NCBI GenBank assembly: GCA_964437755.1
Contig: CAYTIA010000002.1
Coordinates: forward strand, 34,107-98,106
Length of the DNA: 64,000 bases
Direction: 5' to 3'
Source of the DNA: an uncultured Pseudomonadales bacterium
GTDB taxonomy: Bacteria > Patescibacteriota > Microgenomatia > UBA1400 > PJMF01
How positions within the stretch are numbered: position 1 is the stretch's first letter; the number at the start of each line of letters is the position of its first letter. The translations under genes and the position numbers were made by a program. Shown here in pieces: positions 2,905-60,870 of the stretch. The notes beneath the pieces were generated by a model. The model had not been told where the DNA came from, did not search any database, and was given only the letters and a program-made list of their open reading frames with translations.

Positions 2905-3921
2905 CTATTTCTTTAACTCTGGTTCTTGTTTGCTTTGATCTAATTCCATCTGTAACTCTCTCACTTTTTCTTGTTCAAGCTGATACTTCTTTTCTGCATG
3001 GCGCTTGATAGCCATCACGATAGCTGCAATCAGCACACCTCCAAAGAAGATGGAAAGAATAATTCTAACAGGAATGATCCAGAAGCTAGCAGTATCAACA
3101 ATTACTTGACCAGTATCGCCATAACTGGCGGTTAGTTTAGCAGTATAAAGACCGAATCCCCAAATCTTGTCCCATTTGCCGGCAAAATCTCTACTATTTA
3201 AAGGGAAAACGTTTTGAGGCTCAACCTCAATTGAGTCAGATTTTTGACCAAGCATGTTAAAGATATCGATGCTCATGCGGGGTCGAATGTGAATGTCAGA
3301 TTGATTGCGGATAGTGAAAGAGTAGGGCACAGGGCCAAACTCTTGAAATTTATTGAACTTAAACTCTCTGATGTAGGCTTCCTCATTGATTGGTCCATCA
3401 ACAACTACGTAAAACAAAGTACCCACTCTTTGAGTGACTCCAGTACCAGAACCTTCTGCTTGAGTGATATCATCTGGATTAGCTGGTTCATGTAAAACCA
3501 TGGCATATCGTCCTCCTGGCATAGCGTCCTCAGGAATCTCGATTACCACTGCCATCTCTGCTGTTTCTTTTGGAGCAAGAGTATGCTTGTTAGGAACGAT
3601 AGTCATCCAGTGAGCCAAGCTCCAGCGGTTGGTAACACTTTCCTGTACAGGAATTGGGGTTCTGCCGTCTTCCTTGACAATAAAATCTAGAGCGTAAGAA
3701 CGCAGGGTCATGGTTTTATTAGTTGCGTTGCGGATACGAACGGTGGTCTGGATTGTTTCTCCTGGCGCGGCGCGAAGCTGGCCCTCATCACCAGCTCTTG
3801 GTGGCATAACTACCAGTGAAACGGCATCTGCTACATTACTTGTTTGCGCTTTTGCAGGTTTGATTCTGGCAATCGCAATCAACGAAAGTACAATAAAAAA
3901 GGCAAGAAGTGTTTTTTTCAT
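2905..3921 (-). CDS. Cell-surface protein: signal peptide plus C-terminal TM anchor, architecture resembling DUF916/DUF3324 (WxL-locus) surface proteins
   Basis: 338 aa. Signal peptide MKKTLLAFFIVLSLIAIARIKPAKAQ. Single C-terminal TM (IILSIFFGGVLIAAIVMAI) followed by a charged tail. Paralogous in architecture to 5530..6576. Confidence 0.5.
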   Translation of the reverse strand: MKKTLLAFFIVLSLIAIARIKPAKAQTSNVADAVSLVVMPPRAGDEGQLRAAPGETIQTTVRIRNATNKTMTLRSYALDFIVKEDGRTPIPVQESVTNRWSLAHWMTIVPNKHTLAPKETAEMAVVIEIPEDAMPGGRYAMVLHEPANPDDITQAEGSGTGVTQRVGTLFYVVVDGPINEEAYIREFKFNKFQEFGPVPYSFTIRNQSDIHIRPRMSIDIFNMLGQKSDSIEVEPQNVFPLNSRDFAGKWDKIWGFGLYTAKLTASYGDTGQVIVDTASFWIIPVRIILSIFFGGVLIAAIVMAIKRHAEKKYQLEQEKVRELQMELDQSKQEPELKK

Positions 3922-3949
3922 GAGCAGGCTTGTATTTTTTGTTTGTTAA

Positions 3950-5407
3950 TTAAAAAGTAGCTGTAGCTGTATAAGTAATATAGTTGTAGTAGTCACCGGC
4001 GGCGGTTAGGGCATCGGCGATGATTCTGTAACAGGCATAAATACTGTCGCTATTGGTTGGAGTACTTGGCCCAAACACATCAACGGGATCTTGTGCTGAT
4101 TCAAAATCAGCAAAGTGTCTGGCCACGAAAGTTCCGCCAACATTGTATTCAAAAGCAGGATTATCGCTGTCAATGTTTTCGATTGAGTAACCAAAACCAG
4201 TTTCTGTTTCGACGGTCCAATCTTGTTCTACGGTATGAGACATGCTGGCTACATTCGCATCCCATATACACTCAAAAGCATCAACTCCAGCGTTATAAGT
4301 ATCGCCGGCGCAGACTTCACCATTTCTACCAAGTTGATCATTGGCAATGGCAGTAACGACGGCACCGCTTAGAGCATTAGTGGTAACTTTTAGTTCTTGA
4401 GATCCATATTTGAAATCACCGGTGTTAATTTCCCCAAAAGGAACGCTGCTGCCGGTGGTAGTAATATCGGTTGTTTCACCGCATCTGGTTGCTCCGGCGG
4501 TTTCACCAATAATTTCAAAAGTGAGTGAGGGAACAACAGTAGCGCTGACGCGAACTGCTTCAATGGCGCCAATTTTTACAGTAGTTGAGTCAATTACTGC
4601 GTTGTCAGAAGTTCTTACATTGCGAACAACAACCTCATAAGTATCAGCAATACCTGTAATATGACCTGCCGCTGGGGCTGGATTGATGATGGTAGGAATA
4701 CCGATGGTGATGGTTCCACCGGTGCCACCCGTTGTGTAAGGGCAAGTATAAACGTGCCAATAACCCGTGGGAAGAATGCCTCCAGTTTGACCAGCAGAAG
4801 CAGTTGGGGTGCCAAAGGTATGAGAACCAGTTTTTTCGCAGGATACGGTTGGAGAGCCAGTACCAAAATCAAAATAAGCCTGATCAGGGATGCCATCTGC
4901 ACTAGTAGCACTAGTGCCAGTTGCTGGTACCAATACTTGAAAGTAACCTGCTGTAACATCTGTATTTGTGTCAAAAACTACCTCCAGAGCACTTGTTTCA
5001 GCAAGATAAAAAGTTTCATTGGTGGTAGCAATAGCAGAATCAATGGCAATGGTGTTAGTATCAACAACGTCAGCAATGGTTCTTGCTCCTGAAGTAGTAA
5101 AGGTTAGAGAGTCAGTAACTTTTAATGCATCTGTAATTTCTGTGTTGAGATTAACTGTGTAATCAGTAATTGCGGGTGAGTCAATAACTATATCCATAAT
5201 GGTATCTGACCCCGGAGTACCACTAACTCGTCCTCGATAAGAAACCCTTGAATTGCTCATTGTAACTGATACAGAAGTAAGGTTTGCTGCCTGTGGCTTG
5301 TTAAGATAGGCTAGCCAGGTTAATCCTACAACTAATAGAGCAAGTGATACGAGGCGAAAATAGAGGGGTTTGACTTCAGTCATGATGTTGTTAGTTAAAT
5401 AAAACAA
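3950..5407 (-). CDS. Secreted Thr/Gly/Ser-rich surface protein (hypothetical)
   Basis: 485 aa. N-terminal TM/signal (LVSLALLVVGLTWLAY). Very Thr/Gly/Ala/Ser-rich mature region with scattered Cys pairs. No recognisable catalytic motifs. Confidence 0.5.
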   Translation of the reverse strand: MFYLTNNIMTEVKPLYFRLVSLALLVVGLTWLAYLNKPQAANLTSVSVTMSNSRVSYRGRVSGTPGSDTIMDIVIDSPAITDYTVNLNTEITDALKVTDSLTFTTSGARTIADVVDTNTIAIDSAIATTNETFYLAETSALEVVFDTNTDVTAGYFQVLVPATGTSATSADGIPDQAYFDFGTGSPTVSCEKTGSHTFGTPTASAGQTGGILPTGYWHVYTCPYTTGGTGGTITIGIPTIINPAPAAGHITGIADTYEVVVRNVRTSDNAVIDSTTVKIGAIEAVRVSATVVPSLTFEIIGETAGATRCGETTDITTTGSSVPFGEINTGDFKYGSQELKVTTNALSGAVVTAIANDQLGRNGEVCAGDTYNAGVDAFECIWDANVASMSHTVEQDWTVETETGFGYSIENIDSDNPAFEYNVGGTFVARHFADFESAQDPVDVFGPSTPTNSDSIYACYRIIADALTAAGDYYNYITYTATATF

Positions 5408-5529
5408 ACGATAATTTTAAAGCTCTTTTATAAGCTACTTGATAGGGCAATCCAACCCTAAATACACTTAAGTACTACTACGAATATTATTAACAGGATC
5501 TTTTGATAAGTGCAAGAGATAATTTGTAT

Positions 5530-6576
5530 TTACCTTACTCTTTTTACGATCTGCTTCCAACCCCAGTGCATCATCCAGCCCAAACCAACTAAAACCACAA
5601 GTGAAAACGGCAGAGCAATTATGCTTTTGGTTTGGGTCTGTTCACCAACCACAAAATGAGCTTCATAGAGGCCAATCATCAACGGAGGTTTGTAATGAAA
5701 CTGAGTAAAAAGTGTGTCTACTTTTTCTGGATCAAGTAAGCCCTCGGCATCTAACATATCAGAATTTAGTTTGGTACCTCTTACCATTCTTGTGGAGTTG
5801 GCCAAAACAAAATCAGGATAAAAAATGTACTCAACAATGCTTTGTTTGAAAATATTTTTAATGGTGGCGGAACCTTGAATCAGGGTGGCGGTATTGCCGG
5901 TGTTTTCTGCTAAAACATCAAAGCGAATGCCGGTAAAACTGTCAATAAACAGTGGCATGTTGAGATTGGCAATACCGAGTTTTCCCTGATTGGACTCGCT
6001 TTCACCTATGTAGACGATTAAGTTGCTAACGACGGTTCCTGCGACTTGGCTTGAGCTATTATCCTGATTGCTGTCGGCGTTTTCACTAGAAGCTAAACTA
6101 CGAGCATTGACCATTATTGCCAGAGGGTACTCTTTTTCTGATGCTACATCATTAACATCAATTTGTAAGCTGATACTGTGATTTTTTCCTGGTTGTAAAA
6201 CAAATGACTCTCCAAACTGTAAGTCTGGGTTTGCAGTTCGATTAAAGATTTTTCCAGGCTGAAGTACTGGTTGTCCTGTTTTTCCATCAGCCTTAAAGTC
6301 AGTAATGTTGACCGAAATTTCAAGTGGTTCTTTGCCATGGTTTTTAACAACCAAAGTATGCTTGAGTTTTTCTGATGGTTTAACAGCTACATAAGCAACC
6401 GGTGGATGAACTGAGAGCGAAAGTGCAGCACTATTAGGAACAACAACCTCTTCATCTTGGTTTTGATTCGTTGTTTGCTGAGCATTGACTTGAGGAAAAG
6501 ATTGCTGGCTAAAAAGAATAATAAGCCCCACAACAAAAGTTGTAGCGATAGTATTAATAAACTTTCTTTTCTTCAT
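5530..6576 (-). CDS. Cell-surface protein, paralog of 2905..3921 (signal peptide plus C-terminal TM anchor)
   Basis: 348 aa. Signal peptide MKKRKFINTIATTFVVGLIILFS. C-terminal hydrophobic segment LPFSLVVLVGLGWMMHW followed by basic tail KQIVKRVR. Ig-like N-terminal region similar in pattern to 2905..3921. Confidence 0.5.
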   Translation of the reverse strand: MKKRKFINTIATTFVVGLIILFSQQSFPQVNAQQTTNQNQDEEVVVPNSAALSLSVHPPVAYVAVKPSEKLKHTLVVKNHGKEPLEISVNITDFKADGKTGQPVLQPGKIFNRTANPDLQFGESFVLQPGKNHSISLQIDVNDVASEKEYPLAIMVNARSLASSENADSNQDNSSSQVAGTVVSNLIVYIGESESNQGKLGIANLNMPLFIDSFTGIRFDVLAENTGNTATLIQGSATIKNIFKQSIVEYIFYPDFVLANSTRMVRGTKLNSDMLDAEGLLDPEKVDTLFTQFHYKPPLMIGLYEAHFVVGEQTQTKSIIALPFSLVVLVGLGWMMHWGWKQIVKRVR

Positions 6577-6579
6577 ATA

Positions 6580-7380
6580 TTAATAGCCTGGAACGGCAAT
6601 ATAAATAATTCCAGTTTGATATCGACCTGAAGTTTGTGAGGCATCAACCCCAGCCTTATAGGTGATGAGTGCTTGTTCATTTCTAGCGATAACGTCACTA
6701 TTCATTACAACTTGCATTGTTCCTCCTTGACTTGCATCAGCAAATGGGCGAAAACACTCATCATCGCTACTACAGTCCAGGTTACCTGCAGCAGTAAAAT
6801 CATCGCTAACAGTATTTCCTTGAGCGTTATAACCAAAGCCGGCGACAGACTCATTGATCCAGGGTTTGGCTAGATTGACAGCACAGGTGCCCGAGTCGCA
6901 CTCGGTGTCGGGAATCCAGTCAAGTCCTCCGTGATGAGCTAAGCGATGCTGTTCATAAGCATAAACAGTGTATCCGCCAGCACCGCGAGTACTAATGGTT
7001 AAAGTATTTTGAGCACTAGCATGAATTCCTGGTACTAAGTATCCCAATTCCAAATCTGTGTCAGAAATAGAAAAGGCAAAATCTCCAATTTGATAGATAT
7101 ATTGAAAACCGGCTCCAACAAAGTATGTGCTGCCACCGGCTCCATAATCTCCATAAGGGCCAGCGGCGGTTTGTCCTAAAGTGTAGCTTACATTATATAA
7201 GGAGCCTTCTCGTTTTCCTGCTCCCATATTAAAGTTGCCAAACTGAATTACATAAGTTGCGCTTTCAAGGCGCTCGGCTAGTGAGGTTGGAGGTGAGAGT
7301 AGAGCTCCAACTATTAACAATAAGAAAAATGTTAAAAAAATAGTGGCTCGTGACCACTGATGAACTAGCATTCTTCTCAT
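6580..7380 (-). CDS. Secreted Cys-rich protein (hypothetical)
   Basis: ORF 6580..7410. The likely true start is Met at 7380 (MRRMLVHQWSRATIFLTFFLLLIVGALL signal). That start forms an ATGA start/stop overlap with the upstream gene. Gly/Tyr-rich, with several Cys pairs (CDSGTC, CSSDDEC). Confidence 0.5.
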   Translation of the reverse strand: MRRMLVHQWSRATIFLTFFLLLIVGALLSPPTSLAERLESATYVIQFGNFNMGAGKREGSLYNVSYTLGQTAAGPYGDYGAGGSTYFVGAGFQYIYQIGDFAFSISDTDLELGYLVPGIHASAQNTLTISTRGAGGYTVYAYEQHRLAHHGGLDWIPDTECDSGTCAVNLAKPWINESVAGFGYNAQGNTVSDDFTAAGNLDCSSDDECFRPFADASQGGTMQVVMNSDVIARNEQALITYKAGVDASQTSGRYQTGIIYIAVPGY

Positions 7381-8138
7381 TGAGTGTTGCTTTTTTGTTT
7401 TGACAGCCATTCTTTTAGTTTCTCCAGTTCGACTCTAATAAGCATTAACTGCCCTTTTACTGCATCATGGTTTTGCGGAAACTGCATCATTTGGATGGTT
7501 TGATCTAACTTTGGTTGTAAAAATCCAAACAAAAATCCATCAAAATATTTTAGCCAATCCCAAGTGGTGTTTTCTGCATGATTTAGCTCATCTTCCTTTT
7601 GATCCAAAAAAATCTTGTAGCTATGAACCTCATTGTGTTCAATTTCTACCAAAGTTTGTTTTTCTTTGGCTTGCTCATATTGATACTTAGCAAATAAAAA
7701 GAAAACCATTATCAGAGGAATGCTGATTAAATTTGAAAAATCAGCCTTGGAGCTGACTGCTGGATTCAGGGCATAGAAAAATAACAGGGTAAGCAGGGTG
7801 GTGGCGATTGAGGTCCAGCGTTCCATTGTCATCGATACAAAAAATAGATAAACAAATACCAGCGGAAAAAAGATTGAGGATATGCCTCCAGTTGCCCCGA
7901 TCAAGATTAAAAAAGCAAAGGTGACTAGCACCATCTCGTCAACGGCGGTGGTGGGTAAAATTTCCCAGACAGCGGCTTCATTAAGTTTTTTTAAAATGAA
8001 ATAGAGAACAAAACAGGCGCCAAAAGCTTGGAGCGAGTATTGAGCAAGTGAGGGAAATGACAGCCAAAGATAAGCGACCACAATTGAGACCGATAATGCG
8101 AGAGATTGGGCAAGAACTTTTCTAACTTGGTTCGTCAT
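7377..8138 (-). CDS. Polytopic membrane protein (hypothetical)
   Basis: 253 aa with about 5 predicted TM helices and a charged C-terminal tail. First gene of the minus-strand surface-protein operon. Stop TGA overlaps the next start (ATGA). Confidence 0.5.
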   Translation of the reverse strand: MTNQVRKVLAQSLALSVSIVVAYLWLSFPSLAQYSLQAFGACFVLYFILKKLNEAAVWEILPTTAVDEMVLVTFAFLILIGATGGISSIFFPLVFVYLFFVSMTMERWTSIATTLLTLLFFYALNPAVSSKADFSNLISIPLIMVFFLFAKYQYEQAKEKQTLVEIEHNEVHSYKIFLDQKEDELNHAENTTWDWLKYFDGFLFGFLQPKLDQTIQMMQFPQNHDAVKGQLMLIRVELEKLKEWLSKQKSNTQ

Positions 8139-8280
8139 GGGCAGCAGCTGTTGATATAAAAATATAGTAGGATTATATCAACTATAACCTAGTTGAGTTG
8201 TGTAGACAATTGGAGGTCGCTGTTTTTTATAATTACTTGCGTGATACAATCATATACTCGGAGAAATTATTTTTTTATGT

Positions 8281-12224: not shown

Positions 12225-13505
12225 ATGAAAACTAAAACTCTTCGCATTCTAACATCAGCCTTTTCTCTATCAGCTTTGGTTTTTGGATACCTAACTTTTT
12301 CAAATAATGATATTGTTAATGTTCATGGCTCAGACAGCTGTCTTTATGACATAACTGGCTATGTTACTCAAACGGGTTCACTTAGAGCTGGCTATGCTAA
12401 CTGCAATGGAAATTCTTGGTGTATTAAATTAGATGGAATTCCGGCAGAGTATAACAACTCTGGTTGTTATGTTGCCGAACTTTATACCGATCCAATTCAA
12501 TCGTGCGGAAACCAAGAAACTCACCTTAGAAAAAGAGTGAGTATTACCAATGGTGGTGAAATTTGTTTTGATAGTGCCGATTGGGGAACAGACTGCCGAG
12601 CTCAACTTGATATTCGCCGAGATATATCGGGTGCTCCTGCTGGAAATGTGAAAACTTATCTAATTGAGTGTGGCCAAAAGCCATCTCCAACACCAACGAG
12701 AACTCCAACCCCGACATTTACACCAACGCCCACTCTAACTCCAACTGCGACTCCTACAAGTACTCCAGGTCCTACCTCAACACCAACACCAACATCTACG
12801 CCTAGACCAACCATTCCAACTCATTATAGTTCATGTGATAGTTTGAGAGTGGTAAGTGGGAATAACTCTCTAGTTCCTGCAAAAATAACTTTTGAAACGA
12901 GAGCCAGTGATTCCGATGGAGATATTCAGTTATATAGATATTATTTTGGAGATGGAAAATCCCTTGAAACTACACAAAATGTTGTAGAACACACATACGA
13001 AGTATCTGGAACCTTTTATGCAAGAGTATTTATTAAGGATTCAAAAGGTAACTGGAAAACAAGTCAGGCTTGTACAACTAATTTAAAGGTTGAGTCAGCT
13101 CCGATTGAAACTCATAAGTCGGGTTGTAGCGATCTTTTTATTCTATCAGGTCAACACAATCAAGCTCCTACAGATGCCACTTTCCAAGTAACTGGTTTTG
13201 ATAACAAAGGAACAATTCAGCGTTACCGATTAGTTTACAGCACTAATGAACAACAAGAGCAAAGCTCAAATTTTTTCACTAAACATTTTTCTCAGCCAGG
13301 CTCGTATGAGATTAGGGCATATATTCAAGACTCTCAAGGAAACTGGAAGGGTGGAGATGGAAGCTGTCGCAAAACTCTTTACGTTAACACCAAGCCAATT
13401 GTGGTCCAACCAAAAACAGGAACTCCACTAATGGTAACACTAGGCAGTATCGGTTCTGGTGTGCTAGGATTAGGCTTAAGAACAATTAAGAAGCGTTGGT
13501 TTTAG
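12225..13505 (+). CDS. Surface protein with Cys-rich N-domain, Pro/Thr linker, two PKD domains and a C-terminal sortase sorting signal (QPKTG plus hydrophobic stretch plus basic tail)
   Basis: Signal peptide. PT-repeat linker (PSPTPTRTPTPTFTPTPTLTPTATPTSTPGPTSTPTPTSTPRPT). Two repeats matching the PKD pattern (YRYYFGDGKS...HTYEVSGTFYARVFIKDSKGNW; RYRLVYSTNEQ..SYEIRAYIQDSQGNW). C-terminus VQPKTGTPLMVTLGSIGSGVLGLGLRTIKKRWF. Sortase gene is immediately downstream. Confidence 0.7.
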   Translation: MKTKTLRILTSAFSLSALVFGYLTFSNNDIVNVHGSDSCLYDITGYVTQTGSLRAGYANCNGNSWCIKLDGIPAEYNNSGCYVAELYTDPIQSCGNQETHLRKRVSITNGGEICFDSADWGTDCRAQLDIRRDISGAPAGNVKTYLIECGQKPSPTPTRTPTPTFTPTPTLTPTATPTSTPGPTSTPTPTSTPRPTIPTHYSSCDSLRVVSGNNSLVPAKITFETRASDSDGDIQLYRYYFGDGKSLETTQNVVEHTYEVSGTFYARVFIKDSKGNWKTSQACTTNLKVESAPIETHKSGCSDLFILSGQHNQAPTDATFQVTGFDNKGTIQRYRLVYSTNEQQEQSSNFFTKHFSQPGSYEIRAYIQDSQGNWKGGDGSCRKTLYVNTKPIVVQPKTGTPLMVTLGSIGSGVLGLGLRTIKKRWF

Positions 13506-13533
13506 TCATTCTTAATGATCCTTCATTAACTCT

Positions 13534-14199
13534 ATGAAAATTGCCTGGCCAAAAGCAAAGAGGCTAATCTCTTTATATTTATTACCGTTTTTAATCTTTC
13601 TTCTTTTTCTAATCTTCATTAGATGGGTTGTAACTACCGTTGTTCCTGTTGCTTTGGTTGAGGTTAAGTATCAATATCATCACACTCTCACCACAGTGTT
13701 TAATGTTCCCGACCTGAAATCGCTAATTATTCCGGATTTTAGCTGGATGACGTGGGAAGGGCATAGCAAGCATCAAGAATATGGAATCAGAATCCCAGCG
13801 ATTTTTTTGGACGAACCCGTTATTTTTAATGTAGACCCCAATGATTCAGGTCAGTATAAACAAGCTCTAAAAGAAGGTATTGCCCATGCCTCAAGTACTT
13901 CATTTCCTGATAATGCTGGACTTGGTTACTATTTTGCTCATTCCTCAATCGGAGAGGTTAATTTAAGAAACAACGCCATTTTTTATCTTTTGGGCAAGTT
14001 GGTAGAAGGTGACAAAATATTTATTTGGCATCATGGCGAGAAGTTCGAGTACGAGGTATATGGGCAACTGATAGTTGAACCAAATGATGTGGAGTTTTTG
14101 TATCAAGAGTATGATGGAGAAAAGATAGTTCTTCAAACTTGTTGGCCCCCTGGTAGTGACAGACAAAGATTGCTAGTTTTTGCTCAAAGAACAAAATAG
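13534..14199 (+). CDS. Sortase family transpeptidase
   Basis: 221 aa. N-terminal TM. Conserved sortase elements: IRIPAIFLDEPV strand, catalytic His region (GIAHASSTSFPDNAGLGYYFAHSS), catalytic Cys in LQTCWP and Arg in DRQRLLVFA. Confidence 0.75.
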   Translation: MKIAWPKAKRLISLYLLPFLIFLLFLIFIRWVVTTVVPVALVEVKYQYHHTLTTVFNVPDLKSLIIPDFSWMTWEGHSKHQEYGIRIPAIFLDEPVIFNVDPNDSGQYKQALKEGIAHASSTSFPDNAGLGYYFAHSSIGEVNLRNNAIFYLLGKLVEGDKIFIWHHGEKFEYEVYGQLIVEPNDVEFLYQEYDGEKIVLQTCWPPGSDRQRLLVFAQRTK

Positions 14200-14245
14200 A
14201 GCATAACAATGGTTTCTTTTCAGTTTCTTTATTTATCTTAGGGTA

Positions 14246-14995
14246 ATGTCCCTAATAGATTCAATTTCCAAACAAAAGAGTACAAATAGTCAAAAATGGC
14301 GAACACTAGTTGCCGTCATATTTTTTTTATGTGGTGTTTGTGCAGTACTGCTAGGATCACATCATTTATCGAGTGTAATTGAAGTCCCAAATTGTATAAA
14401 TTTTGTAGATGAACAACTTGAAGAAAATATAGTTCAAACTAGAAATGAAAACGAAGTTGATCAAATTGTTAATAGCTTTGGAAAAATTCAAGTTGAGATA
14501 CAGGGAGCGGTGAAAAATCCAGGAGCTTATTGGTTAAAGTCTGATACAAGGTTAGGGGAATTAATAGAGGTAGCAGGAGGATTAACAGAAAATGCCGATC
14601 AAGAATATTTTAAAAAACATTTAAATATGTCTCAAAAACTATCTGATGAGCAAAAAATAACCATTCCTACCAAAGAAAGTAAAGAACTAGCTGAGTTGCT
14701 TAGGGATTACTGTGTCAACTTAAAACAGATAGAGGAAAATGTGAAGATTGAAAACGATGCCCAAGACAATCAAAGTGAAACAGAAGAAGCTGGAATAGAA
14801 ACCAGCAGTAATCAAAACTGTATATCCATTAATTATGCTAGTAGCACCGATCTGCAAAAATTAACTGGAGTGGGAGAAAAAACTGCAGAACTAATAATTG
14901 AGAGCAGACCGTACTCAAAAGTGTCTGAGTTGTTAAATGTGAAAGGGATTGGAGAGGCGACACTGGAAAAAATAGAGAAAGAGATTTGTTTATAA
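14246..14995 (+). CDS. comEA: Competence protein ComEA (SLBB domain plus helix-hairpin-helix DNA-binding domain)
   Basis: N-terminal TM. SLBB-like segment (IQVEIQGAVKNPGAYWLKSDTRLGELIEVAGGL). C-terminal tandem HhH (ASSTDLQKLTGVGEKTAELIIESRPYSKVSELLNVKGIGEATLEKI). Confidence 0.8.
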   Translation: MSLIDSISKQKSTNSQKWRTLVAVIFFLCGVCAVLLGSHHLSSVIEVPNCINFVDEQLEENIVQTRNENEVDQIVNSFGKIQVEIQGAVKNPGAYWLKSDTRLGELIEVAGGLTENADQEYFKKHLNMSQKLSDEQKITIPTKESKELAELLRDYCVNLKQIEENVKIENDAQDNQSETEEAGIETSSNQNCISINYASSTDLQKLTGVGEKTAELIIESRPYSKVSELLNVKGIGEATLEKIEKEICL

Positions 14996-15309
14996 AAAAA
15001 GTTATGGGTTGTAATTATAGGTCGAACTAGACAAAGTAAATTGGCATTTGAAGTAAACAAATTAATGCACAGAAGAGGTAAAAAATCAAAAAATATGTTG
15101 TCATTTCTAACAAAACAATATAAACATATAGAAATATAGCGGTAGAAAGATAGACAAACTATTAACGCAGATATCATCTTTAGTATATATAAATATATTA
15201 AGATATGTTTATAGTTAGGCAAAATATACGAGTAATATATCTCTACCGAAGCTAAATAATCAGGTTGTCTAAAATGTACTATTAATTCACTTGTTAACAG
15301 ATTACTCGA

Positions 15310-16527
15310 GTGATTGATAAAATATTATTTAACATTTTTTATAGAATTTTTATTGGAATTATGCGAAATTTCTATAAATTAGCACTCTCACTAGTACCTC
15401 TGCTAATCATTTTTTTGCTCGTTATTTGTCAATGCAATCAAACAATCTTTGCTTTTATCATTATTAAAGCTTCGTTAAATAATTGGTATGACTTTTTTAG
15501 TAGTAAAGCTTTGTCTGTTATCAGCTACTTGACAAGGAGTGGTGAGTCTGCAGTTGGTAGATTGGGAGCTCAAATCGCCATAGGGTCAGTTTTTGGTGTA
15601 CAAATTGGACAAAACAGCTCATTAAGTCTTAAATTAAAAACTATTGGGATGTCACACTTATGGTCAGCTTCAGGTTTGAGTCTTTATTTGTTTATTCAGG
15701 TGATCAACTCTTTTTTGTCCTTGTTTAGCTACGTTTCTTTTAATAAAAAGACGTTTTTATCTATTCTCAGCTTGTTGTTCTTCTGGTGCGTCGGTCCAAA
15801 ATCTGCTTCTTTGCAAAGATCGTTTCTTTCGATTCTATTATTCTTACTTTTTTCTAAATATTTTGGTTTTCAATTATCTAAATTACGTTTATTGGTCTAC
15901 ATTTTAATCATTATTATTTTGCTTCAACCAACACTTATTAATTCTCTTTCCTTGTGGTTTTCTGTAGGAGCTGTTTTTGGAGTGATTTGTCTCAATTCAT
16001 TTTTATCTAGTTTATTTAAAATGGACCAAACCACTTTCTTTTCTAATTCTTCATTTTTGTCAAAAATTCTTTTTCGAATTAAAAAAATGCTACGTGTATT
16101 TTTTAAAAATGTTGTTTTATTTTTATCTTTACAACTGGGAATGCTCCCCTTAATATCTTTAACTTGGGGGGAGATTAGTTTAATGAGTCTTTTACTAAAT
16201 ATTTTAATGGCTGGAGTAGCGCCAAATGTTTTTTATTTAGGCTTGATTTGGTGTGTCTGGATTGTTTTTTACATTCTTTGGCTACGCTCCTTTGCTTTTG
16301 CAAAGGTACTTTCTTCACTATTAATGTTTCCTCTCGAGTGGCTTTTCGAGATATCTGATCAATTTGTACAAATTGATCAGATGGCGTTAAGAATTCCTGA
16401 ATTTTCAACTATAGCAACAATTGCTTGGTACACAGCAATATTCTTAATCAATCAGTTTTTTGTTTATAGGCGAAAAACTGAGATTTCTGCCCAATATACT
16501 TTAAATAATATTTTTTCTTTTTGGTGA
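15310..16527 (+). CDS. comEC: ComEC/Rec2 N-terminal membrane channel portion, ending in an in-frame TGA
   Basis: 405 aa and highly polytopic, matching the ComEC competence/DUF4131 region. Terminates at TGA 16525-16527. The downstream MBL-domain ORF is in the same frame. Confidence 0.7.
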   Translation: MIDKILFNIFYRIFIGIMRNFYKLALSLVPLLIIFLLVICQCNQTIFAFIIIKASLNNWYDFFSSKALSVISYLTRSGESAVGRLGAQIAIGSVFGVQIGQNSSLSLKLKTIGMSHLWSASGLSLYLFIQVINSFLSLFSYVSFNKKTFLSILSLLFFWCVGPKSASLQRSFLSILLFLLFSKYFGFQLSKLRLLVYILIIIILLQPTLINSLSLWFSVGAVFGVICLNSFLSSLFKMDQTTFFSNSSFLSKILFRIKKMLRVFFKNVVLFLSLQLGMLPLISLTWGEISLMSLLLNILMAGVAPNVFYLGLIWCVWIVFYILWLRSFAFAKVLSSLLMFPLEWLFEISDQFVQIDQMALRIPEFSTIATIAWYTAIFLINQFFVYRRKTEISAQYTLNNIFSFW

Positions 16528-16530
16528 ATC

Positions 16531-17448
16531 TTGATGTTCAAACAAGTAATTCTTATATGTACTATATTCACTTTAGGACTATGTATCCAACTTCTTAGGC
16601 TTTGGCCATCAAAAAACTTAGAGTTAGTTTTTTGCGATGTTGGTCAAGGTGATGCGATATTGATCAAGTATGGGTTTTGGCAGATGCTAATTGATACTGG
16701 ACCAAATGATCAAGTACTAGAGTGTCTTCGACAAAATATGTCATTTTGGGATAAAACTCTTGAGGTTATTCTAATTACTCACACTGATGCTGATCACATT
16801 GGCGGATTTGCAAGCGTGCTATCAAATTATCAAACAAACGATATCTTTTTAGCTGACACAGGAACCAGTACAAGCTACAAAAACATGCTTAATGAGCTTC
16901 TTGCTGAGAAGTTTAGATATACTCAGATTAAAACCGCTTTTTTAGGCCAAATGATTGCTTTTTCCCCTGGTGGACAACTGTTATTTTTGGGACCAGACGA
17001 AGGACAGTTGCCACCAATAAATGCCAGCGCAAACAAATTTTCCGAAACCTTATTATCGGACGTAACGCTACTAGAATCTAAGAATAATGATGATCCAAAT
17101 GAACGATCAATTATCTTGTTATTAAAATATATTGATTTTGAGTTTCTGCTAATGGGAGATGCATCTTCTAAAAATGAGTTAGCACTTGTGAAAAGAGGAC
17201 TGATTGAAAAGGTAGAGGGTATAAAAGTGGGGCATCATGGGTCAAATACTAGTACGCACGTTGACTTGATTGAACAATCTCAACCCGAAATAGCCGTGAT
17301 TAGCTGCGGCTACAACAACAAGTTTGGTCACCCTTCTCTTGATGTGATTAAGATATTAAATCAAAATCAAGTAAAAATACTTAGAACTGATGAGCTTGGA
17401 ACAATTAAGCTCATTACCGATGGAACTGCATACTGGATTGTTGATTAA
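16531..17448 (+). CDS. comEC: ComEC C-terminal metallo-beta-lactamase domain, separate ORF in the same frame as the N-terminal part
   Basis: VFCDVGQGDAILIKYGFWQMLIDTGPND and HTDADHIGG metal-binding motifs typical of the ComEC MBL nuclease domain. ATG at 16534 is preceded by GGTGA (SD-like, embedding the TGA). Confidence 0.7.
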   Translation: MMFKQVILICTIFTLGLCIQLLRLWPSKNLELVFCDVGQGDAILIKYGFWQMLIDTGPNDQVLECLRQNMSFWDKTLEVILITHTDADHIGGFASVLSNYQTNDIFLADTGTSTSYKNMLNELLAEKFRYTQIKTAFLGQMIAFSPGGQLLFLGPDEGQLPPINASANKFSETLLSDVTLLESKNNDDPNERSIILLLKYIDFEFLLMGDASSKNELALVKRGLIEKVEGIKVGHHGSNTSTHVDLIEQSQPEIAVISCGYNNKFGHPSLDVIKILNQNQVKILRTDELGTIKLITDGTAYWIVD

Positions 17449-18088
17449 TTAATTATTTTGCGAAGTGAATAATAGCAGAATAAGAAGATGGGCGAGGATT
17501 GAAAAGTTTGTGTTTTAAAAAAACTAATCAATTATTAAAAATTGAGGTTTAAAAAATTCACCGTGAATTAATTTGTACAAAATCCGAAATATTGTTGTCG
17601 CAACTAAAATAATTAATGCGACAAAAATGTTCCACTGGTTGTTAAAGGGCTTAACAAATAATATGACACACAATTTTTTGATTGACAAGTATCAATTATT
17701 TATACTATGTATTTTTAACGAAAAGTGTATTTATATCTAGTTAAAATGTGTTCAATAATAATTATTTTTCTAGGAGTGTTTTAGTCATCGCGCTCTAAAT
17801 ATTCTCTTCTACAAAACTATTATTTTGAATATAGGCGTTCTTCGGTTATTGTTTACTAGCTACTTTCCAGGCTAACAATTATTTTTTGTATCATCGATTT
17901 GATAAATATAATTGTTATTTAGCTTATTGAATAATAACATACCTCTGGTGATGAATGAATGTTGTTAACTTTCATCATCTCAATAGAACAATAAATGTAT
18001 ACAAATTATTCGGGTTTATTTTTGATTTTAGATAAATACAATATATTGTATATTTTAAGAAAATCCATGTGTTAAAATATTAAGATAG

Positions 18089-19390
18089 ATGTTGAAGATT
18101 AAAAAACAAACACTTAAGTCTGGTATGAGGGTGGTTTATGTACCAATGCCGGCGGTTAAATCTATAACAACCCTGTTGTTAGTCAACACTGGTTCAAGGT
18201 ATGAAGAGTCTACTGAACAAGGTTTGGCTCATTTGCTAGAACACCTGGTTTTTAGAGGAACTCAGAAATATCCAGATAGTTTGAGTTTATCAATTGCTCT
18301 AGATGGTATCGGGGCTAGTTCAAATGCATTTACGGCTAAAGAATACACTGGCTTTTATGTAACTGCTGCAAGCCTACATCTGGAGTTTTGTCTAAAAATG
18401 CTCAGAGAGTTGGTGTTTTTCCCTTTGATTAGGTCTGAAGATGTTGAGCAAGAAAGAGCAGTTGTGATTGAGGAAATCAAGATGCATAGAGATTCTCCAG
18501 AGGATTTTATTGCTGATGAATTTGAGCAGATGGTTTATCAGGGTAGTAGTCTTGAGCATCCCATTAGTGGTTCGATTGAGTCGGTAAGTCTTCAAACGGC
18601 AAGTAGTTTACAAAAATTTCTCAATAAATGGTATGGACTGGAGAATCTAACTTTAGTGATCGCTGGAGATAAAAAAGTGCTTGATGAAAACGATCTCTCA
18701 AGCAAAATAGACACTATTTTTAATGATAAAAATCTATTTGGAGAAGACGAAGGTAAAAAAATAGACAAAAGAGCTAATCATCATCATGAAAGAAGACTAG
18801 GGTTTTTTAAAGAAAACTGTTTTTCAACAAAAAAATCTATCAAAAGAAAACGGGATACAGAACAAGCTCATTTAATAATGGGCTGGCCAGCTTTAAAAAG
18901 AGATGATCCACAGCGATATGTATTGACAGTTTTAGCAACAGTTATGGGTGGAAATAGAAGCTCTAGATTGTTTCAAACCATTAGAGAAAAAGCAAATTTA
19001 GCATATTATGTTTTTGCTGATGTTGATCAGTATCAAGATGCGGGATTGTTGGGAGTGAGTGCTGGCTTAAACAGTAAAAAACTAGAGCAGGGAATTGAGT
19101 TAATTAAAAATGAGTTTGATCAGTTGGCAACAAACAAGAAGCCAATTAATCAAGAAGAGCTTGAAAGAGCACAAGCATATTTAACGGGAAGAATCACTCT
19201 GAGTTTAGAAAGTTCTAGGGCGGTGGCACAGCACTATGGGTTGAGTTGGTTGCTTTTAAATAGAATCGATGAGCCCCAAGATGTAATTAAGGGTATAAGA
19301 GGCGTTACTCTTGACCAGCTTCAGAGTCTAGCTCCAAAAATCATCAAACCAGATGAGTTAAGAATTGCTGTAGTAAGCAGAGGTAAGTAG
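18089..19390 (+). CDS. Peptidase M16 (insulinase/pitrilysin family) zinc protease
   Basis: 433 aa. Inverted zinc-binding motif HLLEH with downstream Glu. M16 N- and C-domain pattern. Confidence 0.8.
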   Translation: MLKIKKQTLKSGMRVVYVPMPAVKSITTLLLVNTGSRYEESTEQGLAHLLEHLVFRGTQKYPDSLSLSIALDGIGASSNAFTAKEYTGFYVTAASLHLEFCLKMLRELVFFPLIRSEDVEQERAVVIEEIKMHRDSPEDFIADEFEQMVYQGSSLEHPISGSIESVSLQTASSLQKFLNKWYGLENLTLVIAGDKKVLDENDLSSKIDTIFNDKNLFGEDEGKKIDKRANHHHERRLGFFKENCFSTKKSIKRKRDTEQAHLIMGWPALKRDDPQRYVLTVLATVMGGNRSSRLFQTIREKANLAYYVFADVDQYQDAGLLGVSAGLNSKKLEQGIELIKNEFDQLATNKKPINQEELERAQAYLTGRITLSLESSRAVAQHYGLSWLLLNRIDEPQDVIKGIRGVTLDQLQSLAPKIIKPDELRIAVVSRGK

Positions 19391-19488
19391 AGATATGTAG
19401 GCAATTCGAGCTTTGAGTTTCTTACAACTTGAGTTAGAATCTCCTCATAATTAGAAGAATTATTAATAACTAATTAAGTAAGGAATAT

Positions 19489-19959
19489 ATGAAACCCACT
19501 CGTACCGCAGTCTTAGTTAAACCAGATGGTTTACAAAGAGGATTAATTGGAGAGATTATCACCAGATTTGAAAAAAAAGGTCTAAAGCTAGTTGGCATGA
19601 AGATGACGATCATGAACGACGATATGTTAAATAGATGGTATGCCGAGCATCGAGAAAAAGATTTCTTTTCTGACTTAAAAGAGTTTATGGGTTCTCAACC
19701 AGTAGTAGCCATGGCTTGGGAGGGAATCGATGCTATACCGGTGGTAAGAAAGCTTGTTGGCACAACTTTGGGTAGAGAGGCTGAGGCTGGCTCAATTAGA
19801 GGTGATTTTGGAATGAGCAAGCAGTTTAATTTAATTCATGCTTCTTCTGAAGATGAGGCCGCCGAAAATGAGATAAGTATAGTTTTTGGAGATGATGAGC
19901 TATTTGATTATAGATGGCCAATGGGCGAGCTAGTATATGCAGAACACGAGAGAGATTAA
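19489..19959 (+). CDS. ndk: Nucleoside diphosphate kinase
   Basis: 156 aa. ERTAVLVKPDG-like start (TRTAVLVKPDGLQRGLIGEI). Active-site His region (NLIHASSEDEA). Confidence 0.9.
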   Translation: MKPTRTAVLVKPDGLQRGLIGEIITRFEKKGLKLVGMKMTIMNDDMLNRWYAEHREKDFFSDLKEFMGSQPVVAMAWEGIDAIPVVRKLVGTTLGREAEAGSIRGDFGMSKQFNLIHASSEDEAAENEISIVFGDDELFDYRWPMGELVYAEHERD

Positions 19960-46292: not shown

Positions 46293-47840
46293 TTAAGCTC
46301 CTTTTGTATTTAGAGCATCCACATTTATTAATTTTAACAAATGCTCTCTCATTGCTTTTGTTCCTTTTTGAAGAGGATGTTCACCAGTATCAAGTAAACT
46401 TATCTCCTTGATTAAATCATTAAAGTATTCTACTTTTTGTTTTAATAATTCAACTGCTTGTTCAGCTTTTGTTGCAAAAAGGGGAATGACTGCTTGGTAT
46501 GCTTCTAAAGCTTGTTGATCTGCTGTTATAGAATGAATTTCATGAAGTAATAAAGCTAGGCGAATTACATCAGGCTGATCATCCTCTTTCTCAAGCAATT
46601 GTCCAACATCTTTAGATATTTCTTCTAATCTACTAGCTGTTTTAGGCTCAAGATCAAGAGTGGAGAATCTGTCGGGATGAGCTAAGCGTTTTAGTTTTGA
46701 TTGCCATTTACGTCCTCCCCATAATTCTTGAGGATTTGCTTCGATCTTTCCAGATTCAAAAGTTGTATTATGAATTTGTTTCCCCTTGTAAAATGATCCT
46801 AACTCATCTGCTCCAGGGAAAGATGATCTCTTGATATCAAATAGTCTATAAATGCATTGTAAAGTGGAAAATAACTCTGTTGATTCTCTCTGTATTTCAA
46901 GAGGAATTTCACTCATTATAATTGCAGTTGCTTTTGTGATATCTTCTATAGCTGTTTGCAAAATTCTTAACTTTTTGAGTGGATCTGTTTCTGCATTAGC
47001 TCTTTCAATAATGTCGTTAATCGAAAATTGCTTTTTTTCTGGTGGATCTTGTGTTGAGTAGGGATCGGGTATCTCAGCTGTTTGATCGGGTTCAAGAGTT
47101 GATTGGTGAAGTTTTTCTTGAGACTCTGCTGTACTAAAGACTACATACTCTTCCATCTTTCCTGTTTTAATTAGTTCGGCGACCATAGCCTTATTTAGAC
47201 CATAAAGTAGCTGGTGAATTGTTTGCCAATCTGCCTTAGTAGCTGTATCATAAGTTTGTAATGCCTCGGCGTCAGCCACCCATGGCTCTTGGATCATTCG
47301 ATTAAGACCAAGTAATGAATGTTTTATTTTGGGCCAAAGTCTTCTAGCGCGGGTGTTTATTGGTCCACCCTCACAGCCATCACGAAAAGTTTGAGAAATC
47401 TCTGCCTCTTCTCCATATGTCACCCGAAATCTAATTTGTTTAGGGCCTCCTTTTTCATTAAGATTTGCTCTTAGACCATCACCCAACGTTGTTGATAGGC
47501 TGTCAATTACCCCAGCTCTTTGTTCTGTTATTGGAGAAACTCTTTCTAAAGCGAATTCTAATGCATTTGATTCTTTAGTTTGATGATCTACAAGTTGTAA
47601 ACATCTAATCAGTCTGAATTTTGCATCAGGGGTGATTCTTGCTGCTTGTGCATCCATGGGTGAAAAAAATAACAAGCTGTTTGGGAATGCTCCCTTGCCC
47701 GGATACAAAAATTTTGCCAAATTTGCTGCTTGTTGTGCTAACGTTACGACCTCATTTCTAAATTCAGCTTCTACTAGAACTTCATTTTCAAATTGTTTAA
47801 GTAAGTCTGGACGTGAATTTGCTTCTGGGGGGTTTGTCAT
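46293..47840 (-). CDS. Hypothetical protein
   Basis: 515-aa ORF. No signal peptide. Predicted mostly helical. No motif. Confidence 0.45.
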   Translation of the reverse strand: MTNPPEANSRPDLLKQFENEVLVEAEFRNEVVTLAQQAANLAKFLYPGKGAFPNSLLFFSPMDAQAARITPDAKFRLIRCLQLVDHQTKESNALEFALERVSPITEQRAGVIDSLSTTLGDGLRANLNEKGGPKQIRFRVTYGEEAEISQTFRDGCEGGPINTRARRLWPKIKHSLLGLNRMIQEPWVADAEALQTYDTATKADWQTIHQLLYGLNKAMVAELIKTGKMEEYVVFSTAESQEKLHQSTLEPDQTAEIPDPYSTQDPPEKKQFSINDIIERANAETDPLKKLRILQTAIEDITKATAIIMSEIPLEIQRESTELFSTLQCIYRLFDIKRSSFPGADELGSFYKGKQIHNTTFESGKIEANPQELWGGRKWQSKLKRLAHPDRFSTLDLEPKTASRLEEISKDVGQLLEKEDDQPDVIRLALLLHEIHSITADQQALEAYQAVIPLFATKAEQAVELLKQKVEYFNDLIKEISLLDTGEHPLQKGTKAMREHLLKLINVDALNTKGA

Positions 47841-47920
47841 AAATTTTTTACTGTCATTTAATATTTATCTTAATAATGTTAACATTTTAATTAGCAAAAG
47901 TTAATCGTATATATGTTTTA

Positions 47921-48148
47921 ATGATTAAGATAACCACAAAAAAACTTTTAAGTGAGATCACGCTGTTTTTAATTGATCAACTTGAAAAAAATGAGATATC
48001 TATAGGTAGAGTTAAGAAAATATCTCGACAGATTTTGGCTGTTTTTCCAGATGAAAAGTGTGATAAAGATGAATTTCCAGTTGAGGTATTATCGCAGTTA
48101 ATAGAAATACCTGAAATTGATACCTTTTTTCAACAAAAGAAATGGTAG
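47921..48148 (+). CDS. Hypothetical small protein, translationally coupled to giant gene
   Basis: 75 aa. Stop overlaps start of 48142 ORF (ATGGTAG). Confidence 0.35.
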   Translation: MIKITTKKLLSEITLFLIDQLEKNEISIGRVKKISRQILAVFPDEKCDKDEFPVEVLSQLIEIPEIDTFFQQKKW

Positions 48149-51100
48149 CAGAAACGCCTCATCAAGAAGTAAACGCAGCCCAATCAAGGGAAGGAGAGTT
48201 TAGATTACGCGATTTATTAAGTGTTTTAAAAAGAGTAGCAGGACAAGAACCTCGGGTGGTACTTGCAACTTTTGTTAATATTGATGAATTTTTACCAACT
48301 GAGCAACAAAAGCAGCTAGTTAGTGAATTGCGTTGGGATCTTGGTGAAAAGAGAAAAACATATCGAAAATTTAAAGAGGCAGGAGTGAATCCTGAAAAGG
48401 CTCTGGATTTAATTGAATATCTTCAGAATGAGATACAGTTTTGCTCAGAGAAAGAGGAAGGTGAAGATAAGTCATGTGCGGGAGAAAAGATCTGTAAAAA
48501 TTACCGATATGAAGAAGGAGATTTTAGATATATTTGTAAATTGATTTCTCTTTCTGATGATCCAATTCAGCTTGTGATAGATATGGGGGAATTATTAGAT
48601 TTTAATGGTTATTATTCCTATCCATCAAGATTTATTTATCATCTTGCAGAATATGCAGAATCATTTTATCAAGCTCAACTTTCTCCACATTATCCTGAGG
48701 TTATTTCTTTAATAGGGGAGTTTTCAGGTGAGTCAGTTAAGATTAATTTCTCCGATTCTTCTTTTCGGTTCAACGAACAAGCTCAAAGAGACGAAAGACA
48801 ATTGAATAGAGTATATAGAGCAGTTCAAGATCCAGTGATTGTATTATCTAACATGGATCAGGTTGAGTTTAAGGGATTGTCCAATGGAGAAAATGTAAGG
48901 AGAGCAAAAGAGCTGTGGAATGAAATGTCTCAAGGAAAGAGTTTAAGGATAGAGTATATTCCAGAGTTATTAACCCTAGCTAATGATACTCAGCTTGCAA
49001 TTGGTTTTAAAGAAATGCTTGCTTACGATGGTCGATTAATGACGAAGATATACGAACAAGAACCTCAACAATTTGCTATTGCCATTGCGCGATTAAAAAA
49101 ACTCAAAGATGAAGTGCCTGAATTATGGGATCTACTTAAGTCTGGCTTTGATATTTCATGGTCATTTGACTATCCTCGTATGTATGGTTCAGATCCTCTT
49201 GATGTTTCGCAAATAGCTCAGCGTAGATACTCGTTTCAAGAAATATTGGCTAGTCAAAAACTAGTAACAAATGCACAGATTGTAGCTAGATATGATGATG
49301 AAAAATTAGAGGCAAGATCTTCCTTTGACGATATTTCTGATTATAAAAGGTATCGTTATACTTCCGATCCAGAAACTCTTGAGAAGAGTTATATTGCAGC
49401 TTATTCACTTGGACAGATATTTCAAAGATCGCGTTTTTCTGACATAAATAGGTACTATTTATGGCAAAACATAACTGAAACTGGCTGTCTAGATCATTTA
49501 TCAATTGAACAACTCAATCAGTTATTTACCCCTTTTGCTCAACTCATAGCAACAAAAGACTCTTCTTTTGTGGATGTTTTAGCTAAGATGGAGCCAAAGC
49601 TTTCTGATGTTATTGGATTAAGTCCCTCATTGGTTGAAGCTAAGGACCGTTTGGAGAAATTGTTATCAGATGAGATGCGGCTAATTGTGTCTGATAAGTC
49701 TTTTATGGATACTGTTTTTGGTGGAGAAATCTCTGGAGCAAGAGACTGGGAATTGATTCTTTCCAATTTGGATCAATATTATCAGCTCTTTCAAAAAAAA
49801 GATGAATTAGAGGCAAAAATTCATCTGTTAGAACACCCCGAATCAGGAGGGTATAGAGTTTCTGTCACTAGAGATTTGCAATTACTATTTTTAGTTTTAG
49901 AAATACCAGATTCGGTTTTAATCGAAATGTCAGAAGAGTCTGCCTCTTTACATCTAACGGTGAATTCAGATGCTGTAAGAAGATATATCTCTTACAGACT
50001 TCTCACTGATGCTGAAAAACAACAACTGCTTGATGGTGTTGGCAGTCAAAAGTATCAAAATGCAATCAAAAGTATTTACGATACAAGACTAAGCCTTACT
50101 GATCTAAGAAAATATATTATGCTTGATTCTGAAAAAAAAGACAAAGTTTGGGAGATGGTAACTCAGTTAGAAGCGGAATTGCACATTAGTGTGGCAAATT
50201 TTAGTGATACTAATGATCTTATCGGATTTCCTCTTGGGTTTTTATGTGAGTTGGTATCAAGCGACTCACTTTATGTGACTTTTGAGAATTTTATCTCTCA
50301 TGTTTTAGATGAACAAGACGATTCGATTGATTCTAATGGCAGACTTAAATGTTTTAGAATATGTGCAATTTTGTTAGCTAATCATCAACAAGATTTAGAA
50401 TTTAATTTTAATGAATATATTACACCACAGGGAGTACCTACTTCAAAGTTATTACTTGAGTTAGCTAATTCCAATCTTACAAATTTACACTGGGTGAGAC
50501 CATATATAACTGATCAATCCTTGCAGGAGATGGAGGAAGACGATCGAAACTTCTGGAAATTTTGGATTACTTTTAATGATGATACAAATTTCCAAAGATA
50601 TCTGCTTGAAAATAAATCAAGATTTGCTGAGTGGATTCAGGATGGAGTGGCGACACACGCTTTTATCTTGGAATTAGCTAGAAACAATCTTGCCGGAATC
50701 GGAACGATTCAAAAACTAATTGAACCAGCTTTATTAAAGATGTCGAAAGATGAAACAGACTTTTGGTCTTTTTGGAAAACATCTTCAGCTGTTGAGAGGA
50801 GGGTGATTACTTCGAATAATGAGCGCTTTTCCCAGCTAGTTGTTGAAGGCGTTCCTACTGCAGTTTTCTATGAATTGGTTGCTAAAGAAAGTCCAGAACA
50901 TTTCATGGAAAACTATGACATCAATGATCTTGCCTCTGACTTAGATCAGAGAACTAGATTTAGAGAAATTGTTTTACAAGCTTTTATTGATAAACATACT
51001 CAGAATCCATATTTTCAAATGGTTTATCGTTTATTAAAAGGAGAGATTGCCGACAGGGGTGTAATAAGTGAATCAATTAAAGAGATGTTTAATCAGGGCT

Positions 51101-53061: not shown

Positions 53062-53128
53062 AGATAAACATATTTCTAATTGGTTATAGAACACGCATAT
53101 TGATAGCACTTTCAAACTAGTTAGCAAA

Positions 53129-54048: not shown

Positions 54049-54068
54049 AAACTGTATTTTGAACAATT

Positions 54069-60798: not shown

Positions 60799-60870
60799 AG
60801 GGCGGTGATGTTAATGGTAGCATGGAGGTCTCCAAAACCTCTCGTGAGGGTTCAAATCCTTCCCGCCCTG
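60799..60870 (+). tRNA. tRNA-Trp (anticodon CCA)
   Basis: Acceptor AGGGCGG/CCGCCCT, D-arm ATGT..GCAT, anticodon stem GAGGT/ACCTC with loop CTCCAAA, T-loop TTCAAAT, discriminator G. Confidence 0.75.

Follow-up and report, generated by a model that had tools for sequence, protein, structure and literature searches.

How should a comEC locus be read when its channel part and its nuclease part lie in one reading frame on either side of a stop codon? The question arises in a window of 64,000 nucleotides, by which we mean the whole stretch of DNA analysed (contig CAYTIA010000002.1 of assembly GCA_964437755.1; GTDB lineage Patescibacteriota, Microgenomatia). Here, an open reading frame (ORF) for the channel at 15310-16527 and an ORF for the metallo-beta-lactamase (MBL) nuclease at 16531-17448 share a frame, and TGA at 16525-16527 is the sole separator. 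This arrangement, reported by the first-pass annotation of the DNA, was confirmed from the sequence and the ORF coordinates. The same annotation had weighed a recent nonsense mutation, programmed readthrough and a functional ComEC of two polypeptides, and had favoured the last, a choice that conservation in relatives now strongly supports. We conclude, with a probability of roughly 0.88, that the site is an ordinary boundary between the two genes of a two-subunit ComEC, inherited in the sampled Microgenomates-group Patescibacteria. The TGA is a true terminator, and its in-frame relation to the second gene is incidental, since the same boundary is formed in relatives by TAA or TAG, in other frames, or with overlaps or spacers. 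To speak of a gene interrupted by one in-frame TGA is, for the same reason, misleading for such an old gene boundary.

The junction in the window and in close relatives

The junction reads TCT TTT TGG TGA ATC TTG ATG TTC AAA CAA at 16513-16542, with TTT TGG TGA ATC TTG ATG at 16519-16536 as its core; it lies on the plus strand, as do all features of the locus given below. The channel gene starts at ATG 15361 rather than at GTG 15310, as indicated by its homologues, which begin with MR[IN]F, and by three of four gene callers. For the nuclease gene, the start is ATG 16534, where the protein begins with a conserved MFKQ, and not TTG 16531. Judged by the homologues, the starts first assigned to the two genes were thus 17 codons (channel) and one codon (nuclease) too far upstream. 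The channel gene accordingly spans 15361-16527 and encodes 388 residues (405 from the alternative GTG 15310), and the nuclease gene spans 16534-17448 and encodes 304 residues, with a transmembrane (TM) helix at residues 2-22 followed by the MBL-fold nuclease. Six nucleotides separate the channel stop from ATG 16534.

A false stop created by an assembly or sequencing error would be conceivable, given that the sequence is metagenome-assembled. However, three separately assembled ENA samples contain DNA 100% identical to it, the junction and its TGA included, together with an identical nuclease protein. A species-level relative, assembled from six further samples (loci L089-L094), carries TGA at the same codon; it shares 85% DNA identity with the window, and its channel and nuclease share 81% and 90% protein identity, respectively. 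Its junction, ACT GGT GGA TGA GTT TCG ATG, differs from that of the window in five of the six neighbouring codons. As the genes are also separate in all relatives, such an error has practically no claim on the data.

More distant loci carry other junctions. Three of them (L005, L095 and L097), with about 50% protein identity in the channel and 74% in the nuclease, read TGG AGC TAA TTG ATG, in which TAA stands one codon later and the length is unchanged. The same TAA in L004 is followed by a 76-nt spacer and a nuclease gene in another frame, whereas Microgenomates bacterium 39_7 (L098) has TAA and 21 nt, and the genes of L006 overlap by 8 nt in different frames. From these comparisons, the stop appears to have shifted and changed its identity among the relatives, with the genes never fused.

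The alternative that a once-continuous comEC was broken by a recent nonsense mutation, leaving a young pseudogene, draws on the shared frame of the two ORFs, on their separation by just a stop and two codons, and on the fact that true decay of comEC is known in the group (the insertion sequence (IS) element of L095, described below). Nevertheless, all relatives examined have the boundary, over a range from 85% DNA identity to as little as about 30% protein identity and with varied stops and frames, and there is no genuine fusion among the Patescibacterial loci, the apparent one in L052 being an artefact of a run of N. Furthermore, the nuclease gene possesses a conserved start of its own, and we found no frameshifts or extra stops in either gene of the window. 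The ratio of nonsynonymous to synonymous substitution rates (dN/dS, Nei-Gojobori) is far below 1 in both halves, with 0.27-0.35 in the channel gene and 0.14-0.16 in the nuclease gene. The pair L004 and L005 (channel 0.27 with dS 0.65; nuclease 0.14 with dS 0.53) provides the more reliable values, because comparisons of the window with L004 or L005 are near synonymous saturation (dS 1.1-1.4). These ratios indicate that both genes are under purifying selection. With all relatives from 85% DNA identity downward split and this copy free of other lesions, the suggestion of recent pseudogenisation can be set aside as extremely improbable.

The surroundings of the two genes are also conserved. At 12225-19959, the window encodes a PKD-domain surface protein, a sortase, ComEA, the channel, the nuclease, an M16 peptidase and NDK, an order kept in L004, L089 and L098 and holding in relatives at about 50% protein identity; the part from sortase to NDK is found in L004, L005, L089 and L098. 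The comEA gene (14246-14995) is preceded by the sortase gene, lies directly upstream of the channel gene, as in relatives, and encodes a membrane-anchored DNA receptor with SLBB and helix-hairpin-helix domains (Pfam SLBB, E 2e-11; HHH_3, E 3e-15).

A case of genuine decay was observed in L095 (JGI 3300026311 Ga0209723_1002029; 71% nuclease identity), where an IS element with HTH_Tnp and rve domains is inserted into the channel gene at 642-2997 and the downstream nuclease gene is intact.

Breadth of the two-gene layout and the case for readthrough

To survey the layout, the nuclease alignment was scanned against one genome per GTDB species, which gave 80 loci, and the plus-strand ORFs of these loci were scored with our own Competence and MBL profiles. 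Most of the named ones among these 80 belong to the Microgenomates group of Patescibacteria (Pace-, Beckwith-, Levy-, Shapiro-, Woese-, Gottesman-, Roizman- and Curtissbacteria). Adding the loci collected earlier and the window to the survey loci with both domains gave a set of 71, and in 71 of the 71 loci the Competence domain and the MBL domain are located on different ORFs. The second gene is offset from the first by 0, 1 or 2 nucleotides of frame in 15, 29 and 27 loci, and the channel gene ends in TAA, TGA or TAG in 28, 26 and 17. The length of the junction ranges from -74 to +158 nt in most loci, and 18 have the 4-nt overlap ATGA. The two genes are adjacent in about 65 of the 71 loci, frequently with the 4-nt overlap; about 850-1,000 nt lie between them in four loci, and their order is reversed in one. 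Two of the four widely spaced loci were inspected, and in both an unrelated gene fills the gap, so the pair is not always one operon. The intervening gene in L060 (4278-4907) lies on the opposite strand and is superoxide dismutase-like by eye, and that in L021 (4208-4921) is an ORF of 237 residues on the same strand.

The only genuine ComEC fusions in the survey are those of two Actinobacteria (L084 and L086). An apparent fused ComEC of 596 residues in L052 (2410-4197 of a GTDB representative), standing among split Shapirobacteria-like relatives and thus suggestive of a re-fusion, was rejected, since a run of N spans its junction; its nearest relatives, at 80% identity, are split.

Protein searches gave a similar picture. 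Each of the 120 best homologues of the nuclease stands alone, with a length of 237-358 residues and no Competence domain. For the channel, an exhaustive profile search was used, as a word-indexed search with the channel only returned five matches, probably because the sequence is hydrophobic and of low complexity. Among the best 150 channel cluster representatives (50% identity), an MBL domain is absent from 135 and first occurs at rank 47. A search with the fused query found only three split-type relatives. In two loci that were reached from the channel side, a downstream gene for a TM-anchored MBL protein overlaps the end of the channel gene by 8 nt, and one of the two channels carries DUF4131. 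Moreover, every split-type nuclease had its best hit in another split-type protein, and every fused-type one in a fused-type protein.

Six loci from metagenome-assembled genomes (MAGs) of Firmicutes (L068, L069, L077, L078, L082 and L088; Lachnospiraceae, Oscillospiraceae and Eubacteriales) encode ComEC-like MBL proteins of 316-424 residues with an N-terminal extension, and at these six loci no ORF with a Competence domain was found within 5 kb on the same strand. Judging from these sequences, the nuclease may be encoded apart from the channel outside Patescibacteria, too.

The variety of frames and stops also bears on whether the UGA is read through. If the UGA were read through or recoded in a programmed way, as Gly, Trp or Sec, the locus would yield ComEC as one chain, be it the chief product or a minor, regulated form. 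In favour of this, no stop codon leaks more than UGA in many bacteria, the fused protein would look like canonical ComEC, and the ORFs are in frame not only here but also in L089, L005 and L098. However, the in-frame state does not exceed chance, because its prior is one in three and the 15 in-frame junctions of 71 fall below that expectation, and the channel gene ends in TAA or TAG at 45 loci.

Nor is TGA decoded as sense in this genome. The window has a GC content of 36.5%, and 47 non-shadow ORFs cover 86% of it. When non-shadow ORFs of at least 150 codons were examined, no in-frame TGA occurred in 18,404 codons, as opposed to 1,283 TGA in the other two frames of the 47 ORFs. The window uses TAA, TAG and TGA as stops 32, 12 and 3 times, respectively, and encodes a tRNA-Trp with the anticodon CCA at 60799-60871. 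An alternative code in which UGA means Trp or Gly (table 4 or 25) was rejected on the absence of in-frame TGA and on this anticodon. The genome uses the standard code, as the first-pass annotation had claimed.

A readthrough context, which the same annotation had named as something to look for, did not emerge: we found no stable RNA structure 3' of the UGA, where the minimum free energy is -3.4 kcal/mol and 195 of 200 shuffled sequences fold at least as well. Conserved readthrough is excluded, because frames and stop codons vary among the 71 loci and there is no structure downstream of the UGA. Programmed readthrough therefore fails as a general explanation, and for this locus, too, we regard it as very unlikely, although a low-level, unprogrammed leak of the UGA may occur in this in-frame strain.

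The two proposed subunits and their expression

Where does the boundary fall in the ComEC structure? According to the topology derived by cryo-EM in 2026, ComEC has 11 TM helices, of which three precede the OB fold; NS6/NS7, flanked by two short strands, lie between TM9 and TM10, TM10 is separated from TM11 by a short cytoplasmic helix (CH1), and the periplasmic MBL domain is held on a flexible linker (PMC13539106). The channel protein of the window matches Pfam Competence PF03772 (E 1.2e-20; 74.5 bits with a cut-off of 23) and scores 35.6 bits against NCBIfam TIGR00360, just under the cut-off of 36.5. Its profile aligns with residues 233-427 of the full-length ComEC 30bt_A. The AlphaFold2 (AF2) model of the channel (mean confidence, pLDDT, 90.8) contains only helices up to residue 270, then short strands at 271-273 and 342-344 flanking two helices, followed by a long helix at 350-378 and a terminal helix at 381-387. 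After the last helix, the protein ends in a basic YRRK, which fits a cytoplasmic location in this model.

The channel lacks an OB fold: Pfam gives no match to DUF4131 (PF13567), the region aligned to residue 233 of 30bt_A is preceded by only 77 residues, and no beta-strand appears before residue 271 in the AF2 model. On the model, the channel protein is a Competence domain without an OB fold that ends in TM10 and a short C-terminal helix. Some relatives retain the OB fold DUF4131, namely L060 (45.5 bits) and P0273.

Superimposed on the published topology, the gene boundary is predicted to lie between CH1 and TM11, in a cytoplasmic loop, so that the second gene would consist of TM11 and the nuclease. 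With the split located one TM helix before the MBL domain, the nuclease would keep its own membrane anchor. The earlier placement of the stop exactly at the boundary of channel and MBL domain does not hold; the site falls between structural units, one TM helix earlier than that boundary.

The second protein could, in principle, be a neighbour unrelated to the channel, that is, a general secreted or membrane hydrolase rather than a ComEC subunit. MBL-fold proteins are functionally diverse, the pair is separated in four loci and reversed in one, and no Competence gene lies on the same strand within 5 kb of the stand-alone relatives in the Firmicutes MAGs. The protein of the window matches Lactamase_B (PF00753) with E 1.6e-09, but the family that fits it best is the ComEC/Rec2 equivalog TIGR00361, of which it matches the C-terminal part (positions 418-663 of 663; E 2e-29). 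Its best solved structures by sequence are the ComEC chains 9ic4_A and 30bt_A; from residue 11 on, the protein aligns with 30bt_A from residue 516 on, a stretch that corresponds to the helix in front of the MBL domain of full-length ComEC. The AF2 model (pLDDT 93) shows a helix at residues 2-22 and then the MBL fold, for which the closest solved fold is Moorella glycerini ComEC's beta-lactamase-like domain (9ic4; E 3e-23, TM-score 0.84). The metal-binding motif HTDADH at residues 83-88 (16780-16797) corresponds to the HPDADH (HxDxDH) of the solved ComEC structures. The residues H83, D87, H88, N189, H234, H235 and H266 are invariant across 80 stand-alone nucleases, as are the motifs HTDADH, HHG and GHP in the nuclease partners. 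An unrelated hydrolase is unlikely, and clearly so, because the matches in sequence and fold are specific to ComEC and the gene persistently adjoins the channel gene, often with the 4-nt overlap. At NCBI, one of the nuclease's relatives is annotated as 'DNA internalization-like competence protein ComEC/Rec2' and others as 'MBL fold metallo-hydrolase'.

Two further features of the nuclease family were observed. Cys34 (16633-16635) and Cys64 (16723-16725) are invariant in the 80 stand-alone nucleases and are not conserved in the solved single-chain ComECs, which have Ile at position 34; a disulfide between the two in the extracytoplasmic nuclease domain is possible, as far as the sequences indicate. 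The nuclease of the distant relative L006 (5506-6801) carries an insert of about 150 residues rich in Ser, Thr, Pro and Ala between its MFK start and the membrane helix, which would be a cytoplasmic extension, presumably disordered.

We propose that the two-subunit ComEC works as follows. The product of the first gene would form the channel for single-stranded DNA, comprising the Competence domain through TM10 and the short cytoplasmic helix, and that of the second gene would be the strand-degrading MBL-fold nuclease, held in the membrane by an N-terminal helix equivalent to TM11. Both genes would be co-transcribed from a promoter in the conserved spacer between comEA and comEC. Ribosomes that finish the first gene could restart 6 nt further on at ATG 16534, by re-initiation or close-range initiation, in which the GGTGA overlapping the stop may assist. 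The two membrane proteins would assemble non-covalently, with the nuclease over the outer mouth of the channel, where it would receive double-stranded DNA bound by ComEA and degrade one strand while the other passes through the channel. A role in DNA uptake is suggested by the context, with comEA directly upstream, and ComEC-dependent transformation has been shown in another lineage of the Candidate Phyla Radiation (CPR), the Saccharibacteria.

The spacer between comEA and the channel gene (14996-15360) has 365 nt, which is long for a window with 86% coding sequence, and 351-463 nt in relatives. In an alignment with L089, L004, L005 and L098, blocks of the spacer are conserved even though dS exceeds 1 in the flanking genes, among them TTGTCAtT...ATATAAAC, TATTGCATAGAT, ACCGAA and CAAAATGTAC, as well as an AT-rich inverted repeat, TATATATAgATAT-N4-ATATgTTTATAG. 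A promoter-like site, TTAACA-18-TAAAAT with a TG motif, is located at 15294-15323, but such sites are not above chance in the region. The spacer had no Rfam match at E<=1, and its RNAalifold consensus is a weak fold (-4.3 kcal/mol). On the basis of this conservation, the spacer is probably the promoter/operator of a two-gene operon. Neither a promoter-like nor a terminator-like site was found in the 6-nt junction spacer.

The GGTGA at 16523-16527, which ends 6 nt before ATG 16534, had been put forward as a Shine-Dalgarno sequence for the nuclease gene. It remains a plausible Shine-Dalgarno-like element here, and L005 and L097 have GGAG at the equivalent place, but the element is not conserved in the family.

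Several points weigh against the two-subunit interpretation or narrow it. Only 12 of 70 loci have a Shine-Dalgarno core ahead of the nuclease start (0-9 in control windows), so any coupling would come mainly from close spacing or overlap. The assembly, stoichiometry and co-transcription of a two-protein ComEC are what we infer from sequence. The OB fold, which positions the nuclease in fused ComEC, is absent here. Moreover, the separation of best hits into split and fused types is confounded with taxonomy, and the survey cannot give the true frequency of the layout across Patescibacteria, because it was seeded with nuclease motifs of this clade.

Beyond the sampled loci, we tentatively extend the two-subunit interpretation to the Microgenomates in general and possibly to most Patescibacteria, whose ComEC might be a machine of an OB-less or OB-containing channel and a separately encoded, TM11-anchored nuclease; this generalisation is more doubtful than likely. 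If it is true, many ComECs recorded as 'Competence-only' or 'MBL domain lost' have their nuclease in trans, and neither the covalent link nor the OB fold would be required to couple the degradation of a strand to translocation. Separate genes might even be the ancestral state, from which a gene fusion would have given rise to canonical ComEC.

Apart from the comEC locus, the window contains several large ORFs without a Pfam match at E<=1e-4, at 2905-8177 on the minus strand and at 46293-55223. They include a run of five minus-strand genes (2905-8177), as well as the ORF at 48121-53061, which encodes 1,646 residues.

Comparison with known ComEC systems

ComECs without an MBL fusion have already been published for CPR bacteria as fam000603 (Meheust et al. 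2019), and practical interest in the present locus is modest because the missing fusion was known. An explicit description of a separate, adjacent MBL partner of ComEC or of the position of the split was not found in the searched literature, the coverage of which was incomplete. The unfused state in CPR is thus known; what appears new is the operon of two genes, along with its extent and its mapping on the structure. For annotation, the site should be treated neither as a pseudogene nor as a frameshift or recoding event, and the downstream 'MBL fold metallo-hydrolase' as the nuclease subunit of ComEC.

The channel of the window, a Competence-only ComEC in a CPR genome, is evidently a member of fam000603. 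In contrast to that family as presented in the part of the account at hand, a membrane-anchored MBL partner stands directly downstream here, and the split site is mapped on the ComEC structure. Pimentel & Zhang (2018) classed ComECs as C, DC, CL or DCL and inferred gains and losses of domains per protein; the words 'separate', 'split', 'adjacent' and 'two genes' are absent from their text. The present channel resembles the 'C' and 'DC' profiles, such as the ComEC of Helicobacter pylori without OB or MBL domains, in being Competence-only with a short N-terminus; the H. pylori protein has a single N-terminal TM helix (PMC13539106). Unlike those profiles as scored, the 'lost' MBL domain is encoded next door, and surveys that count the loss of domains per protein may underestimate nucleases encoded by a neighbouring gene.

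Coding sequence spread over more than one ORF is also a feature of degraded comEC, as in L095 and in Piscirickettsia salmonis, where comEC is reported to be interrupted by transposable elements. In those cases, insertion elements lie in the channel domain, whereas here a clean, conserved boundary runs between structural units.

The closest likeness is to canonical ComEC/Rec2 (Neomoorella carbonis, PDB 30bt; Bacillus subtilis), with which the locus shares the Competence channel, an HxDxDH MBL nuclease following a TM helix, and comEA as a neighbour. From the strands flanking NS6/NS7 through TM10 and CH1, the secondary-structure elements of the modelled channel follow one another as in the published topology. 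Neither ORF reaches the 190-bit cut-off of the full-length model TIGR00361, the channel scoring 18.2 and the nuclease 102.1 bits. The locus differs from the canonical form in that the nuclease and TM11 form a separate polypeptide with its own gene, and in that only one of the three N-terminal TM helices, and no OB fold, is present, 77 residues replacing about 232 of 30bt_A. Recent cryo-EM and biochemical work regards ComEC as a single chain, in which the OB fold binds DNA, positions the flexibly linked nuclease (as in N. carbonis) and enhances its activity. A clade in which the nuclease is cut off before TM11, and which lacks the OB fold in this lineage, is a natural test of which connections within ComEC are needed.

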